In this document: one piece after another, positions 1,355 to 36,264 of the stretch
How positions within the stretch are numbered: position 1 is the first letter of the stretch
How the letters are laid out: each line of letters opens with the position of its first letter
The notes under the pieces: generated by a model
The model's database searches: none
Told to the model about the DNA's origin: nothing
What the model saw: only the letters and a program-made list of their open reading frames with translations
Made by a program: the position numbers and the translations under genes
From: a virus
Taxonomy: Duplodnaviria; Heunggongvirae; Uroviricota; Caudoviricetes
Length of the DNA stretch: 41,806 bases
Direction: 5' to 3' (one strand)
IMG/VR virus record: IMGVR_UViG_2711768061_000003
Location: 1-41,806 of that record

Positions 1355-3142
1355 ATGGAACTGAAATACAGACCCGAAATTGATGGGTTGAGAACATTAG
1401 CTGTTTTACCTGTTATCTTTTTTCATGCAGGTGTTCAATGGATTCCTGGCGGCTTTCTTGGAGTAGATGTTTTTTTTGTTATTAGTGGTTTTTTAATTAC
1501 CAGCATTTTGCTGAAAGAATGCAGCAATAGAACATTTACATTCTCTGGGTTTTATGAGAGAAGGGTTCGTAGAATTGCGCCTGCATTAATTCTAATGACA
1601 TCAGTAATATTCATTATATCATTATTTATGATGGTTCCATATGACCTAAAGAATCTAGGCCAATCAGTTGTTGCAACAATTTTTTCAGCAAACAATATAT
1701 TATTGTACTTAACGTCAGGATATTGGTCTACAGCATCTGAATTTAAACCATTGTATCACACATGGAGTCTTGCTGTAGAAGAACAGTATTATCTTGTAGC
1801 CCCTGTAATAATATATATAATTTACTCAATAAATCATAATAAACTAATAAAGAATAGTTTTATGTTTTTACTGGTAATATCAATTGCCAGTTTTTTATAT
1901 GCAACAATTACAACAGTGCATAATATGGAGTTTTCATTTCTTATGCTCCCTTCAAGGGCGTGGGAGATTGCTCTTGGTGGGGTTGCCGCTATTGCGCACT
2001 ATAAAATAAAAATAAAAAGTAACATCTTATCATACCTTGGTTTTTTATTGATAATATCAAGTTACTTCCTTGTGAATGGTAAAAAATCACACCCTGGATT
2101 TGAAACATTATTTCCAGTTCTTGGTGCATGTTTGTTTTTAATGCATTCAAATGCATCTAAAGGAATTGGAAAGATCATGTCAATAAAACCAATTGTGTTA
2201 TGTGGCATGATAAGTTATTCGCTATACCTTTGGCATCAACCTGTTTTTGCATTTATAAGATTAAACTCAAAATTTGAACCGTCAACAACATATTTTATCG
2301 CATCCATTCCTTTAATTTTTATTATATCGTGGATGTCTTATGTTTTTGTAGAAAAACCATTCAGAAACAAGAGAAAAACATCTACAAAAAAAATCTTATC
2401 ATATACATTAGCATTTTCGTTGGTGTTATCAGCATCAGGAATTTTGATGCACAAAACATATGGATTGCAAAATGTCAGGCCTGATCTTGCATATGGAGGA
2501 AATCCACAGGAGTATGTGGATACCCCGAAGAAATTAAAGAATATTGAGTTCTCAGACAATGGAAAGAAAATATTAATCATGGGTAACTCATATGCGAGAG
2601 ATTTAATTAATGCAATATCTACAAAGATTAAAACAAATGATCTTAATATTGTATATTTTGAGGGTGGATGTGATTGGTCAATAGATAATAAAAATAAATT
2701 AGATTACTACTTGAATGACTCAGACATTATTTTATATTCGGAGAATTGGGGTGCAGGCGACTATAATAATAACGTTGAAAAGTTAAAACACTGTTACGAT
2801 TACATAAAGTCAAAAACAACTGCAAAAATGTACTTGATTGGCACAAAAAACTTCGGGTATAACAATAACTTTGCTGTTAACCTGTCTCTTAATGACAGAG
2901 TTTTAGCAAAAACATACCCGCTATCAAGATATATAGAGTTTAACAATAAGGCGAAAATGATTTTTGGCGATGACTACATAGATTTGTTTGACCTTATAAA
3001 AGACAACAATGGAATGGTTAGAGTTTTTGATGAGAATGGCAAATTTTTATCATATGATGCAAACCATCTAACGAAATATGGAGCAAGTTACATTGGAGAA
3101 GTCTTAGACAAAAAAACAGACTTACTTCAATCTTTGAAATAA
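1355..3142 (+). CDS. membrane O-acetyltransferase (acyltransferase-3 family N-terminal domain with SGNH-like C-terminal domain); likely O-antigen or polysaccharide modifying moron
   Basis: 595-aa ORF; N-terminal motifs typical of acyltransferase-3 (DGLRTLAVLPVIFFHAG, VDVFFVISGFLIT); multiple hydrophobic segments followed by a soluble C-terminal domain; markedly AT-rich versus neighbouring genes; sits in the int-tailspike moron slot. Confidence 0.8.
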   Translation: MELKYRPEIDGLRTLAVLPVIFFHAGVQWIPGGFLGVDVFFVISGFLITSILLKECSNRTFTFSGFYERRVRRIAPALILMTSVIFIISLFMMVPYDLKNLGQSVVATIFSANNILLYLTSGYWSTASEFKPLYHTWSLAVEEQYYLVAPVIIYIIYSINHNKLIKNSFMFLLVISIASFLYATITTVHNMEFSFLMLPSRAWEIALGGVAAIAHYKIKIKSNILSYLGFLLIISSYFLVNGKKSHPGFETLFPVLGACLFLMHSNASKGIGKIMSIKPIVLCGMISYSLYLWHQPVFAFIRLNSKFEPSTTYFIASIPLIFIISWMSYVFVEKPFRNKRKTSTKKILSYTLAFSLVLSASGILMHKTYGLQNVRPDLAYGGNPQEYVDTPKKLKNIEFSDNGKKILIMGNSYARDLINAISTKIKTNDLNIVYFEGGCDWSIDNKNKLDYYLNDSDIILYSENWGAGDYNNNVEKLKHCYDYIKSKTTAKMYLIGTKNFGYNNNFAVNLSLNDRVLAKTYPLSRYIEFNNKAKMIFGDDYIDLFDLIKDNNGMVRVFDENGKFLSYDANHLTKYGASYIGEVLDKKTDLLQSLK

Positions 3143-3233: not shown

Positions 3234-5408
3234 TTATTTCTGCATCCTTTTTATCTCTCTACGCATATATGCAGCCTCAAGACAAAGTATTTCTTCGTAG
3301 CGTACAGTGTAACCTGAGTGAGCCTCCTGTGCAGCCTGAAGCAGCACCTTAGTGCCGTCGTCTAAAGTATCATACACCGCCTCTGTCGCGGGGGTATCAT
3401 CATAGCAAAGGATGCCGTACTCGAAAGGGTCCACTCCGTGGGCCTCAAATGCCGCCTTGATGTCTTGCGCGATAACCCCAATATGTCTCCGGGCTTTACT
3501 ACCTTTTTCTGCCACGCTTGCCTTTAATTTATAAGCCACATACTGGACGTCCCCCCAGGCGTCGAGAACAGCATCAGGTATTTGTGACTCTTCTGTTTTT
3601 GAGTTTCTGTCTGACGTGACCTGAAAAGCTGTTTGTGTATACCCACCTGACCATGCATATGCTGACGTTCCACATGTTTGAGCGTTCTGCCGACCAGGCC
3701 TAACATAATCTACGCCCCAAACAAGAACCGATGAATAGCCTATTTTCCAGTATGCTATTTTTGATACGCTATCAACTACTTGCTGCTGCTCATACAGGCC
3801 GTTTTTTGTGCGATAGGTCGTTGTTTGATAGCTTCTTGGAAGAAATTGAAGCCCCTGCGTACTTAAGCTCCTTATTGAATTTATAATATCAGGATTGGCG
3901 CCGCCTTGTGTTCTTGCAATAGTCATTCCGTCTGAACAAGCTGGGTGACCATATTTAAGACGAAGATTTTTTATCTCTGTAAGAGACTCTGCCCGGTTTG
4001 TATCGTCTCCTGATTTAAGCAAGTACCAACCAGCCACTGAGCTGTTATGCTCAACTAGGTTTTTAAACACGAATTTAGGGTCTGTGAAGTTTTCTGCGTA
4101 TTGCGGAGGATTCATAAGAACCAGCCCTTTAAACCCTGAATCGGTACGAGAGTTGTTAATGTGCAGCCCATCTATAATGATGTGGTCTGACTGGGTATTT
4201 TCGGTGCCGTCGGTTTTAAGATAAATCAGATTTTGGCCTTTAAAGTATTCAAACCAGCCATCGTTAATCTTAAAGTTAAAGAACTGTTGCAGATAGAAAA
4301 ACGCCCCGCCAAATACCTCGTTTTTCTCAAACCATGGGTTGTTTATGGTGAAGTTAAACCCACCTATAATACGGAAGAACATTCTGGCGCGAGCATCAAG
4401 GAAGATTGGGCTTTCCATGAAGTTTAAATTAAACGCTGCAAAAGGGTTGTTGTCATCCACAGGGGTATCAACAATGTAACCGGAGTCGTTAACCGTTTTG
4501 AAAATTGGGTTATAGTGGTAAACAGCAATCCATGACGCTTTCCATACAGTATGAAAGCCTTGCCATACACAGTTATGAGTGGTAAATGTTGCCACCCAAT
4601 TACCAGCGGCGGCTTCCATGAAAACGTTGGCGCTATTTAAAACATTAGAGCCATCGAAAATAATATTTTTAAAAGTGCAATACTGGAACTGATAAGGACC
4701 ATCTTGCGTGAACATAGTATACCCGCCAGATGATTTAATAGTGGCTTTCCCGTTAGGGCAGATGATATTGAAAGACTTCCAAGCCTCTGTATGTAAAGGT
4801 TTACTTGTCACGTAGACAAATCCAGCAGGAATTAACAATCCAGCATTAGCATTAAGCACAGAAATAACTTTGTCATCCACCTCTGGATTAGCTAAGCCAC
4901 TTATTGCCCCTAAATCTTGTATGGATAGCAGGTCAGAATTTTTATCATGCTGAGTCCTTCTTATTGCATCAAAAAAAGGCTGTTTAACGCCAATTAACGC
5001 ATCACCTTTACTTTCATCATCTAAATATTTACCCGTTTGGGCAAGCTGATTAACGATGTCAATACTGAATTTGTCGGGGTCATATTTCAGTACATTATGG
5101 AAATAGAACTGCTGCGCACCATACGCATCATAAACAGCCATAGAATGGCCTTGTACAGTTACGAATTTGGCAATCTGTCCGTTATATACTGGGTAACCAG
5201 CAGCGTTAATGATGATTGGTTGCGAAACAGGAACGTGAGAACCGTCTTCGTTCTCCACATAAACCTGAATCTGGTTTTCAGGATTTACCGGGTCAGTGTC
5301 AATTTTACCGATATAAATTTTGCCATTGGCTACGGCTTTAAAAGAACGAGCCATAGTGAAGAGTTGCGAAGGCATCGATACGATCACATTGGCTGTAATG
5401 TCTGTCAT
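3234..5408 (-). CDS. tailspike protein: P22-gp9-like N-terminal head-binding domain, divergent central receptor-binding domain, C-terminal intramolecular chaperone (S74-like) domain
   Basis: 724-aa ORF; first ~110 aa ([11 protein letters not shown]...[21 protein letters not shown]...VLKYDPD) match the P22 tailspike N-terminus as recalled; C-terminus contains [26 protein letters not shown], resembling auto-cleaving chaperone domains of endosialidase/tail fibre proteins. Confidence 0.9.
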
Positions 5409-33180: not shown

Positions 33181-33720
33181 CTAAATTAGCTCATCAGCTT
33201 TACCAGCAAAGCGCATATAACACTCATGGAACCAGACGTCAGGTATAACAAATTTCTCTTTACCTGACGCGCTGTAAGTCACACCTGAGCGATGGAGAAG
33301 GCCTTTTCTCATAAGAGATAAAGCGACCGGATCGCCGTGCTTAAGTACGATTTTGTTATTTGCCATAACAGCAAATGCTAAAACCTCTTTTTCCTGAATA
33401 CTCAGAGAATTGAACAGGCGCTCAGTCTCCACAATTACTTTAGCCTCATCTCTCTTACTGAGATATTTTTTATATCTGTCTGAAGATGCCAGAAATATAA
33501 ACTCCATCACCCTGTTCAGAACATAACTGATACACAAAAGCATTGCGTAATACATCCAGTGATCTGGAAGTATTTCTGGGTTCCTTATATCTACCCACTC
33601 TTTAATTGATGCAGGGGTGATTATTATCAAGGCAATTAAAATAATAAGCATATGAATTAACTGTTGTAGCGTAAGACCACGCAGGAAGAAACGTAATAGT
33701 TCCTGCCACCAGTTACTCAT
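33181..33720 (-). CDS. sieB: superinfection exclusion protein B (SieB-like), membrane protein
   Basis: 179-aa ORF with two N-terminal hydrophobic helices, located antisense within the PL operon next to the N-like gene. Confidence 0.65.
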   Translation of the reverse strand: MSNWWQELLRFFLRGLTLQQLIHMLIILIALIIITPASIKEWVDIRNPEILPDHWMYYAMLLCISYVLNRVMEFIFLASSDRYKKYLSKRDEAKVIVETERLFNSLSIQEKEVLAFAVMANNKIVLKHGDPVALSLMRKGLLHRSGVTYSASGKEKFVIPDVWFHECYMRFAGKADELI

Positions 33721-33937
33721 CGGTGAATCTCCATCATTCTCTCTGTAGGGGGTGAATAGAGTTTATCCGATTTCTCGCTGTAGGGGTACACGAGAACCAC
33801 CGAGCCTGATGTGGTTAAAAGACAGGCATACGAATAAACACTGCACTGTGTATTCATTCCAACGAGTGAATACACGGAGCAATGTCGCTCGTAACTAAAC
33901 AGGAGCCGACTTGTTCTGATTATTGGAAATCTTCTTT

Positions 33938-33964
33938 GCCCTCCAATGTGAGGGCGATTTTTTA
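33938..33964 (+). terminator. rho-independent terminator (tL1-like) just upstream of the next early-left gene
   Basis: Hairpin GCCCTC-CAATGT-GAGGGC followed by GATTTTTTA. Confidence 0.55.
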
Positions 33965-34955: not shown

Positions 34956-35561
34956 ATGAGCAAAGAATTTTACGCAAGACTGGCAGCTATTCAGGAGAAT
35001 CTGAACGCGCCAAAGAATCAGTACAACTCATTCGGTAAATATAAATACAGAAGCTGCGAAGACATTCTTGAAGGCGTTAAGCCGTTACTGAATGGCCTGT
35101 TTTTATCAATCAGCGATGAAGTTGTGTTGATTGGTGATCGGTATTACGTGAAAGCCACGGCAACTATTACCGATGGCGAAAACAGTCATACGGCAACCGC
35201 CCTTGCACGAGAGGAAGAAAGCAAGAAAGGAATGGATTCTGCACAAGTTACGGGAGCTACAAGCTCTTATGCACGCAAGTATTGCCTCAATGGTTTGTTC
35301 GGCATTGATGATGCGAAAGATGCAGATACCGACGAGCATAAACATCAGCAGAACGCAGCAGCAAAGCAATCAAAACTATCACCTACACCTGAACAGGTTC
35401 TAAAAGCATTCACTGACGCAGCATTGCAGAAAAACACCGTGGAAGAGCTTAAACAGGCGTTCGCCAAAGCGTGGAAGATGCTCGAAGGCACACCGGAGCA
35501 GCACAAAGCGCAGGACGTTTACAACATCAGACGAGACGAATTAGAAGGAGCTGCTGCTTAA
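34956..35561 (+). CDS. erf: Erf-family single-strand annealing recombinase
   Basis: Position and size as P22 Erf; start chosen at the internal Met (MSKEFYARLAAIQENL...). Confidence 0.8.
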   Translation: MSKEFYARLAAIQENLNAPKNQYNSFGKYKYRSCEDILEGVKPLLNGLFLSISDEVVLIGDRYYVKATATITDGENSHTATALAREEESKKGMDSAQVTGATSSYARKYCLNGLFGIDDAKDADTDEHKHQQNAAAKQSKLSPTPEQVLKAFTDAALQKNTVEELKQAFAKAWKMLEGTPEQHKAQDVYNIRRDELEGAAA

Positions 35562-35944
35562 TGGCACATTCGATTACTGTAAGACTAAACAAGCCCGCAA
35601 GAGAGTTTCAGGCCGGGGAAAATATCGGATTCAACATCCGTGCTGGCGTTCAGTATTACGATCGCCAGACAAAAAAGAAAGAATGGACAAACTACAGCGC
35701 CGTTGTATTTGCCAAGCCAGGAGCGCAAGCGGATTACTACCGTAGCGTTCTTGTTGAAGGTGGCATTGTGGAAATTACCGGAGAAAACATCAGGGTTGAT
35801 GTTTATCAGGGGCAAAATGGTCAATCAATTACTCTTGAATTACTGAATGCAAAGATTGGATTTACAGCTTCAGGAAATGGCCCGCAGCAGCAAAGTAGTA
35901 ACCAGCAGAACACTCCTGTATACGACGATTCCATCCCATTCTGA
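35561..35944 (+). CDS. SSB-like protein with C-terminal acidic tail DDSIPF
   Basis: 127-aa product; ATG overlaps the erf stop; Gly/Gln-rich linker and C-terminal ...YDDSIPF resembling the bacterial SSB tail (DDDIPF). Confidence 0.55.
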   Translation: MAHSITVRLNKPAREFQAGENIGFNIRAGVQYYDRQTKKKEWTNYSAVVFAKPGAQADYYRSVLVEGGIVEITGENIRVDVYQGQNGQSITLELLNAKIGFTASGNGPQQQSSNQQNTPVYDDSIPF

Positions 35945-35967: not shown

Positions 35968-36264
35968 ATGCCAGCGCCTCTGTATGGTGAGGATGACCCA
36001 CGCCGATGTTCCGGCAATTCCGTATCGGAGGTGCTGGATAAATTCAGAAAAAACTACGACCGGATAATGTCTCTACCGCAGGAAACGAAAGAGGAAAAGG
36101 AATTTCGCCACTGTATATGGCTTGCAGAGAAAGAAGAACGCGAGCGAATTTACCAGACATCAATCCGACCATTCCGCAAAGCCACATATACCCACTTCCC
36201 TGAATATATCGACCCGCGCCTGCGTAATTACCGCTCACGCTATGGCGCTATCAGTAATGACTGA
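35968..36264 (+). CDS. hypothetical protein (possible Abc2-like anti-RecBCD by position only)
   Basis: 98-aa ORF downstream of the erf module. Confidence 0.4.
   Translation: MPAPLYGEDDPRRCSGNSVSEVLDKFRKNYDRIMSLPQETKEEKEFRHCIWLAEKEERERIYQTSIRPFRKATYTHFPEYIDPRLRNYRSRYGAISND

Follow-up and report, generated by a model that had tools for sequence, protein, structure and literature searches.

A putative single-stranded DNA-binding protein with a host-like C-terminal tip, encoded between erf and abc2 in a P22-like phage or prophage of Escherichia coli

Gene product 40 of phage HK97 was classed as "SSB-1b" among the single-stranded DNA-binding proteins (SSBs) of phages by Subramaniam, Casjens, Smith et al. 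(Genome Res 2025; PMC12315714). As described in the main text of that paper, the SSB-like fold of gp40 was assigned by AlphaFold3, while little to no sequence similarity of the protein to SSBs could be recognised. The same text presents the "HK75-type" Rec module, which combines an anti-RecBCD protein, an SSB and an annealing protein without a nuclease and was present in 27 of 325 phages. According to the same source, the Erf protein of P22 works without any phage SSB. Term searches of the main text found no discussion of a conserved C-terminal tip. In phage HK620, the SSB HkaK binds ssDNA, and its last six residues (NDYPPF) are needed to stimulate the annealing protein of the phage in vivo as well as in vitro (Hutinet et al. 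2018, PMC5928155). The HK620 gene known as "abc1", which occupies the same slot next to the annealing-protein gene, proved to encode an SSB (PMC5928155). The C-terminal tip of E. coli SSB is the meeting point of over a dozen interaction partners (cited in PMC5928155), and the last seven residues of SSB set the compatibility with RecT and Red-β (bioRxiv 10.1101/2020.04.14.041095).

The locus described here lies in a stretch of 41,806 nucleotides (IMG/VR record IMGVR_UViG_2711768061_000003), which is referred to below as the window and is a mosaic CUS-3-like/P22-like E. coli phage or prophage. It carries a standard P22-like early-left operon with the gene order c2-type repressor, N-like antiterminator, sieB-type gene, DUF2528 gene, kil, arf, erf, SSB-like gene, abc2 and ea genes, of which the sieB-type gene is located on the opposite strand. 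The start of erf was set at the ATG that yields MSKEFYARL, like P22 Erf; the two Erf proteins are 74.6 % identical over their full length (tblastn and alignment). The features of the region are listed in Table 1.

Table 1 Features of the erf-ssb-abc2 region, in window positions
Feature	Position	Strand	Basis
erf, Erf-family single-strand annealing protein, 201 aa	34956..35561	+	PF04404 E 5e-44; phrog_155 E 8e-57
Shine-Dalgarno-like AAGGAG, within the 3' end of erf	35545..35550	+	read from sequence; 10 nt to SSB ATG
TAATG, overlap of erf stop and SSB start	35559..35563	+	read from sequence
SSB-like gene, HK97 gp40/"SSB-1b" type, including stop	35561..35944	+	sequence, phrog_44, homologues, PMC12315714
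Predicted OB-fold ssDNA-binding domain, residues 1-104	35561..35872	+	model and alignment
Short disordered linker, residues 105-119	35873..35917	+	pLDDT, alignments A1 and A3
C-terminal tip VYDDSIPF, counterpart of E. coli SSB DFDDDIPF	35918..35941	+	sequence, tip-to-tip profile alignment
abc2, anti-RecBCD protein 2, P22 type; third cassette gene	35968..36264	+	PF11043 E 3e-61; phrog_656

The SSB-like gene consists of 127 codons and a stop codon and is translated as MAHSITVRLNKPAREFQAGENIGFNIRAGVQYYDRQTKKKEWTNYSAVVFAKPGAQADYYRSVLVEGGIVEITGENIRVDVYQGQNGQSITLELLNAKIGFTASGNGPQQQSSNQQNTPVYDDSIPF. Its C-terminus reads ...NTPVYDDSIPF immediately before the stop codon, in agreement with the original prediction of a 127-aa protein ending in DDSIPF. 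That prediction had also placed its ATG across the erf stop codon, and the erf TAA (35559-35561) and the ATG (35561-35563) indeed share a single base in the sequence TAATG. Such an overlap suggests translational coupling of the two genes. At the junctions between erf, the SSB-like gene and abc2, neither a promoter-like site nor a convincing terminator-like site was seen. The ATG at 35561 was taken as the start because the full-length homologues listed start at or beside MAHSIT. A longer, GTG-initiated reading frame (35471..35944, 157 aa) was dropped, since it overlaps erf out of frame and the homologues do not have that start.

The window protein is matched by the family phrog_44, "single strand DNA binding protein", with an E value of 7.8e-27. 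None of the Pfam families, PF00436 included, matched it at E<=1, it reached 14.2 bits with TIGR00621, which is below the cut-off of 53.95, and phmmer with the single window sequence found no match in the PDB. Weak PF00436 matches were obtained with 8 of 59 relatives (best E 0.0038), and with A1, the initial family profile, the PDB yielded no more than a marginal match (4dam, E 0.36). A profile link to SSB required A3, a broader family alignment of 81 sequences. Using hhalign, A3 was aligned across the OB core of E. coli SSB with a probability of 97.2 % and an E value of 4.7e-11; the SSB sequence used is identical to that of PDB 1EQQ/4MZ9. A search of the PDB with the HMM of A3 returned Klebsiella SSB (7.9e-7), E. 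coli SSB (3.6e-4) and yeast Rim1 (1.2e-3), and the alignments with the Klebsiella and E. coli proteins placed core on core and tip on tip.

Residues W40, W54, F60 and W88 of E. coli SSB, which contact ssDNA by stacking in the 1EYG structure, align with Y32, W42, F50 and Y82 of the window protein. The corresponding columns are aromatic in 185, 185, 184 and 185 of the 185 distinct homologues, respectively, if five His in the first column are included. By residue class, they hold Y/F/H (185), W/Y/F (185), F (184) and Y/F (185). The tetramer-important His55 of E. coli SSB aligns with Thr43, which is invariant and is part of an invariant T-N-Y motif.

Fold recognition for an OB-fold, a check suggested along with the original prediction, gave a concordant picture. 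An AlphaFold2 model built from 59 homologues had a mean pLDDT of 83.9 and shows an all-β barrel that contains a single helix (residues 55-63) and is followed by a disordered tail. When residues 1-100 were divided into ten blocks of 10 residues, the average pLDDT was between 91 and 96 in eight of them and 84 and 94 in the other two, while it was below 50 over residues 107-127, except for residues 122-123. Strands were predicted at residues 3-8, 14-18, 21-34, 39-51, 69-74, 76-84, 87-95 and 98-103, the helix being situated after the fourth of these. The predicted barrel has a helix between strands 3 and 4 as well as long β-hairpins, as in the SSB/PriB lineage. The best 50 matches in a Foldseek comparison with the PDB were all bacterial or mitochondrial SSB or PriB structures (E 3e-5 to 1e-3, TM 0.4-0.55), and a structure search of BFVD ranked members of the family first and annotated viral SSBs next. 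Taken by profile alignment and model, the window protein would thus belong, as a strongly diverged member, to the OB-fold lineage of bacterial SSBs.

The protein had been described earlier as shorter than a canonical SSB and possibly as a minimal OB-fold. The difference in length is real (127 aa compared to 178 aa in E. coli SSB), but it is a consequence of the short linker of approximately 16 residues. The OB domain itself, with approximately 104 residues compared to some 112 in E. coli SSB, is of full size, and the term minimal does not apply to it. The linker (residues 104-119, SGNGPQQQSSNQQNTP) is rich in Gln, Ser and Asn. The Gln in the earlier description "Gly/Gln-rich" is therefore appropriate, but there are two Gly residues only and Ser and Asn are abundant instead. 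In the homologues, the linker varies from 12 to 87 aa and is hypervariable to the extent that it cannot be aligned.

The C-terminus of E. coli SSB reads ...MDFDDDIPF, and YDDSIPF of the window protein is identical to the host sequence DFDDDIPF at five of the last six positions. Among 185 distinct full-length homologues, 152 (82 %) end in PF; IPF accounts for 126 of these and PPF for 15, and a small number have APF, VPF or MPF. The family members of Serratia and Rahnella are among those with PPF ends. A PF ending is also present in 25 of the 29 representatives with less than 80 % identity in the OB domain. When full-length representatives of clusters at 50 % identity were counted (n=119), 65 had an exact PF end and about ten more ended in IPF plus one residue. 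A minority of the family has non-acidic ends, such as ...GNFNQPQR, ...GGFPQHQG and ...GGFQNQQK, and in about a quarter of the cluster representatives the tip is lost or altered while the core is kept. The conservation of PF behind a linker that cannot be aligned indicates that selection acts on the tip in the majority of members, as it does in bacterial SSBs. The host-SSB-like tail that had been predicted is thus a conserved trait of the homologues rather than a peculiarity of the window protein.

Gene 40 of HK97 and the window gene are 96.6 % identical at the nucleotide level and 95 % at the protein level, and counterparts with 94-99 % DNA identity are present in HK022, HK106, HK542, HK446, the mEp phages, CUS-3 and several Stx1a/Stx2 phages. 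Close viral copies are nearly always annotated as "hypothetical protein", with one "ssb protein" (HF4s). The gene is carried by 579 of 5426 complete E. coli genomes (~11 %), where it is almost always labelled "hypothetical protein" beside "ERF family protein". A first scan of IMG/VR yielded only copies that were at least 96 % identical and was repeated with an alignment of diverged members. Among 5.8 billion proteins searched, 318 homologues were detected, which come from Escherichia, Salmonella, Citrobacter, Klebsiella, Cronobacter, Serratia, Rahnella, Leminorella and metagenomes. Nearly all of these 318 are without a precomputed Pfam domain; one homologue of the window protein has the UniRef name "Bacteriophage HK97 gp40". 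An exhaustive profile search among 1.84 billion cluster representatives retrieved only 210 at E<=1e-3, and with HMMER alone the gp40 family stays separate from the large canonical SSB family. On these sequence comparisons, the gp40-type proteins form a small and discrete family.

Of the close loci, taken from IMG/VR and from reference phages (n=105), 103 have retained the complete order erf-ssb-abc2 together with the one-base overlap. The picture is more varied in diverged loci. Members with approximately 50-65 % identity directly follow Erf in some loci, e.g., L003 and L005, and a YqaJ-type exonuclease (PF09588) is encoded directly upstream in 20. Other direct upstream genes specify a Sak annealing protein (PF06378), a Gp157/Mu-Gam-like protein (PF05565) or small proteins of unknown function, including those of phrog_1376, phrog_11517 and phrog_17260. 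Erf was recognised by jackhmmer from the window Erf in 8 of 56 diverged loci, and the other upstream genes were typed by Pfam and PHROGs. In one locus (L014), in which only the C-terminal 95 aa of Erf were matched, an Erf domain swap was considered and rejected: the gene is an erf remnant, cut short when the region was rearranged with a DnaB-like helicase fragment. The variety of recombination neighbours in the distant relatives argues for a general SSB of recombination modules and not for a partner of Erf only. The earlier notion of an SSB partnering Erf consequently fits the close relatives, in which the cassette is fixed, but the pairing is not specific for Erf in the diverged ones. The homologues in L003 and L005 lack the IPF tip, so the linkage of the gene to Erf is independent of this tip. 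As P22 Erf, which is 75 % identical to the window Erf, works without a phage SSB (PMC12315714, main text), an SSB is not obligatory for Erf.

The combination of fold, profile homology, aromatic positions, tail conservation and cassette context supports the original view of an SSB-like OB-fold protein with a tail of the host-SSB type. Neither a model lacking an OB-fold nor a tail that homologues fail to keep, the outcomes that would have spoken against this view, was observed. The reading that we favour, with a probability of about 0.7, is that the gene encodes the phage's own SSB, the middle member of an erf-ssb-abc2 cassette, which would coat ssDNA and use its tip to recruit Erf and maybe host partners. 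P22 Abc2 acts on host RecBCD. Abc2 of the window would likewise reprogram RecBCD, so that resection of the phage DNA ends yields 3' ssDNA. This ssDNA would then be coated by the SSB through its full-size OB domain and the putative stacking residues Y32, W42, F50 and Y82, a capacity for ssDNA binding that is predicted from alignment and model. The flexible Gln-rich linker would present the acidic-hydrophobic tip YDDSIPF as a docking handle for Erf, which, via the tip, would bind the SSB or displace it from the ssDNA and subsequently anneal complementary strands. The proposed contact between Erf and the tip is suggested by analogy with the pairs HK620 SSB-Sak4 and E. coli SSB-Red-β/RecT. Co-production of Erf and SSB would be maintained by the one-base stop/start overlap. 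As the tip is close to the host sequence DDDIPF, it can probably engage host SSB-interacting proteins as well.

Several other functions can be envisaged for the gene, and the same observations bear on them. The protein could be a general phage SSB for replication or for the protection of ssDNA that has no specific functional tie to Erf, and the adjacency of the two genes would then only reflect the modular gene order of the early-left operon. The upstream genes of diverged phages, which encode a YqaJ exonuclease, Sak, Gp157-like or small unrelated proteins instead of Erf, are compatible with such a role, as is the independence of P22 Erf from a phage SSB. On the other hand, almost all neighbours that can be identified are recombination and not replication proteins, and the overlap with the erf stop codon is fixed in the close loci. 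Moreover, the replication module (O/P) of lambdoid phages is located elsewhere and uses host functions, as stated in the main text of PMC12315714, and the analogous SSB of HK620 acts specifically on its own annealing protein. The gene neighbourhoods agree better with a role linked to annealing than with a general one in replication or protection, which we regard as possible but unlikely.

The original prediction had offered, as an alternative, a decoy of the host interactome. The host-like tip would then titrate or redirect ExoI, RecQ, RecJ, RecO, PriA, the χ subunit and Ung away from host SSB, by which phage ssDNA would be protected or host repair disturbed, and ssDNA binding would be dispensable. 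Such a function is suggested by the near identity of the tip to that of a host protein with so many partners and by its conservation. A decoy needs the tail only, however, whereas the OB core, including all four stacking-aromatic positions, is the most conserved part of the protein. Because it is this predicted ssDNA-binding core that is best conserved, a pure decoy is improbable, slightly more so than a general SSB. In addition, the gene lies among recombination genes, to which nearly all of its identifiable neighbours belong, and the quarter of the cluster representatives in which the tip was lost or changed have nevertheless kept the core. The decoy idea found no specific support, although a side effect on host partners through the tip may occur. 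Least probable by far, and close to negligible, is a functional replacement of P22 Abc1, in which the protein would act together with Abc2 on RecBCD and not on ssDNA. The layout would suit it, as abc-1 of P22 is positioned between erf and abc-2 and starts at the last base of erf. The absence of homology to Abc1 (see below) and the SSB fold make an Abc1-like role unlikely, the fold and profile evidence both indicating an SSB, and the "abc1" gene of HK620 is a precedent for an SSB in this slot.

An extension of the favoured reading, which we consider doubtful, is that phage SSBs and annealing proteins are matched by a modular "address code", with the C-terminal tip as one of its halves. The tips of the gp40 family fall into at least two classes, namely the host-like (D/E)-x-(I/P)-P-F and the non-acidic G-(G/N)-F-x-Q-x-Q-(R/G), and the Erf genes adjacent to the latter class encode proteins with other C-terminal domains. 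In the window Erf, the C-terminal domain comprises 55 residues and is a portable module, which a Sak4-like (RecA-fold) annealing protein carries as well; this domain might act as reader of the IPF tip. If an address code exists, a phage SSB would load its own recombinase and at the same time join the host SSB interactome or compete for it, and tip/reader pairs might be swapped to obtain re-targeted recombineering systems.

The predicted SSB-like fold of gp40 is already known (main text of PMC12315714, published in 2025), and the gene is common and of an ordinary kind, so that the conceptual gain beyond that publication is little. Added here are a supported sequence link to E. coli/Klebsiella SSB, the mapping of the aromatic residues, statistics on the tip and the range of recombination neighbours. 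Since RefSeq has the gene as "hypothetical protein" in about a tenth of complete E. coli genomes and in many Stx, HK97-like and P22-like phages, the label SSB closes an annotation gap. With a size of approximately 1.3 kb, Erf, its cognate SSB and Abc2 together are a compact candidate recombineering module; work on RecT/Red-β and on HK620 Sak4 has shown that recombinase compatibility is controlled by the SSB tip.

With respect to the known systems, P22 Abc1 resembles the window protein in gene position: abc-1 takes the same slot, starting at the last base of erf and followed by abc-2. Abc1 is a RecBCD-modulating accessory protein and not an SSB, however, and its sequence is unrelated, with no homology to the window family detectable by hhalign (probability 0.2 %). 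The SSB of HK620 (HkaK, "SSB-2") shares the order annealing protein-SSB-abc2, the start/stop overlap with the annealing-protein gene and a host-like end, NDYPPF in HkaK and YDDSIPF in the window protein. Its partner is the RecA-like ATPase Sak4, whereas the window gene adjoins Erf, and here too homology to the window family was not detectable with hhalign (probability 0.2 %).

E. coli SSB (PF00436; PDB 1EYG, 1EQQ, 4MZ9) has the same architecture as the window protein, with an N-terminal OB domain, a disordered linker of low complexity and an acidic IPF tip. In both, aromatic residues occupy the positions corresponding to W40, W54, F60 and W88, and SSBs are the best structural matches. The two proteins are only ~15 % identical, and the window protein stays under the Pfam and TIGRFAM thresholds. 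Its linker of ~16 aa is Gln/Ser/Asn-rich, in contrast to the ~55 aa, Gly/Pro/Gln-rich linker of E. coli SSB. It also differs by the replacement of His55 with the invariant Thr and by a two-residue insertion (TNY motif) after the W54 equivalent.

HK97 gp40 is encoded by the same gene as the window protein, in the same slot between erf and abc2 and within an HK75-type Rec module. Four codons upstream of the stop codon, the HK97 reference contains an additional A that is absent from the window gene, and as a consequence of this A the annotated HK97 product ends in ...DDSNPILI and not in ...DDSIPF. Whereas little sequence similarity of gp40 to SSBs is reported in the main text of PMC12315714, the deeper profile used here reaches the SSBs of E. 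coli and Klebsiella.

The SSB gene of the window was found in 579 of the 5426 complete E. coli genomes, with up to four copies per genome and four plasmid locations. One chromosome, that of strain ETEC4091, carries it with 100 % identity over the gene. In the RefSeq records listed for E. coli, the product is named "hypothetical protein". The coordinates of the features discussed here are listed below.

Features in the window and in related loci, with coordinates and strand
Feature	Sequence	Coordinates	Strand	Remark
SSB gene	Window	35561-35944	+	
Membrane-protein gene, 179 aa	Window	33181-33720	-	phrog_1301 "superinfection exclusion; inhibits SieB", E 4e-94
Terminator-like hairpin	Window	33174-33147	-	Just downstream of membrane-protein gene
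Terminator-like hairpin	Window	33936-33957	+	
Erf residues 146-200	Window	35391-35558		
C-terminus of Sak4-like protein	Erwinia phage vB_EhrS_59 (L162)	2501-2665		Match to window Erf, 51 % identity, E 9e-16
Stretch of gene 40 near its stop	HK97 (L001, NC_002167)	2870-2890		Compare window 35930-35944
Split SSB gene	Phage HF4s (L002, MT833387)	2501-2896		
Locus with truncated erf	L014, IMGVR_UViG_645058835_000001	1815-3001		
Locus of diverged family member	L004, GCA_024449815.1 contig	3696-4558		
SSB gene, 100 % identity	ETEC4091 chromosome, NZ_CP122617.1			

Two phage records depart from the intact reading frame. HK97 gene 40 has one surplus A, four codons ahead of the stop, and the annotated product of 129 aa therefore ends in ...YDDSNPILI instead of ...YDDSIPF, which leaves the database type member without the conserved tip. 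The cause is either an error in sequencing or a genuine mutation. In phage HF4s, the gene is present in two pieces, one coding for 94 aa and annotated as "ssb protein", the other for 36 aa and annotated as "putative phage protein"; the split looks like a frameshift, either in the record or in the phage itself.

The surroundings of the gene also vary. In the prophage-like contig L014, only the last ~95 codons of erf remain as a consequence of a rearrangement that brought in a fragment of a DnaB-like helicase gene, now on the opposite strand; the SSB and abc2 genes are both intact. No recognisable recombination gene adjoins the diverged family member of L004 (185 aa, tip EDDIPF). Its gene overlaps the stop of a gene for a 101-aa protein bearing cysteine pairs, which suggest a zinc ribbon, and a 289-aa protein encoded upstream has no match in Pfam or PHROG. 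In the window, the early-left operon contains the membrane-protein gene on the strand opposed to that of the operon.

Erwinia phage vB_EhrS_59 encodes a Sak4-like protein (RecA fold, 287 aa) whose C-terminus is 51 % identical to the last 55 residues of the window Erf; no gp40-type SSB gene lies beside the Sak4-like gene in this phage. The Erf C-terminus thus looks like a portable partner-interaction domain common to unrelated annealing proteins.

In a minority of the family (P0092, P0093, P0099, P0103, P0105, P0137, P0164, P0186, P0217, P0220, P0240, and P0264; loci L003 and L005), (I/P)PF is replaced by another ending, recurrently a non-acidic one such as GGFPQHQG, GNFNQPQR, or GGFQNQQK, which may be a second partner-recognition tip. 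The SSB gene of L005, a member with this motif, lies directly 3' of the Erf gene, as does that of L003, which has a different non-IPF tip (...GGYNNNRG); in both loci, the C-terminal region of Erf is shorter or of another kind.

Several other members (P0104, P0113, P0116, P0126, P0144, P0155, P0171, P0195, P0196, and P0237; loci L087 and L113) carry one to five additional residues past IPF, as in IPFN, IPFS, IPFD, and IPFNQGGR. In E. coli SSB, the terminal Phe takes part in partner recognition through its free carboxylate, so that such extensions should alter or block this mode of partner binding.
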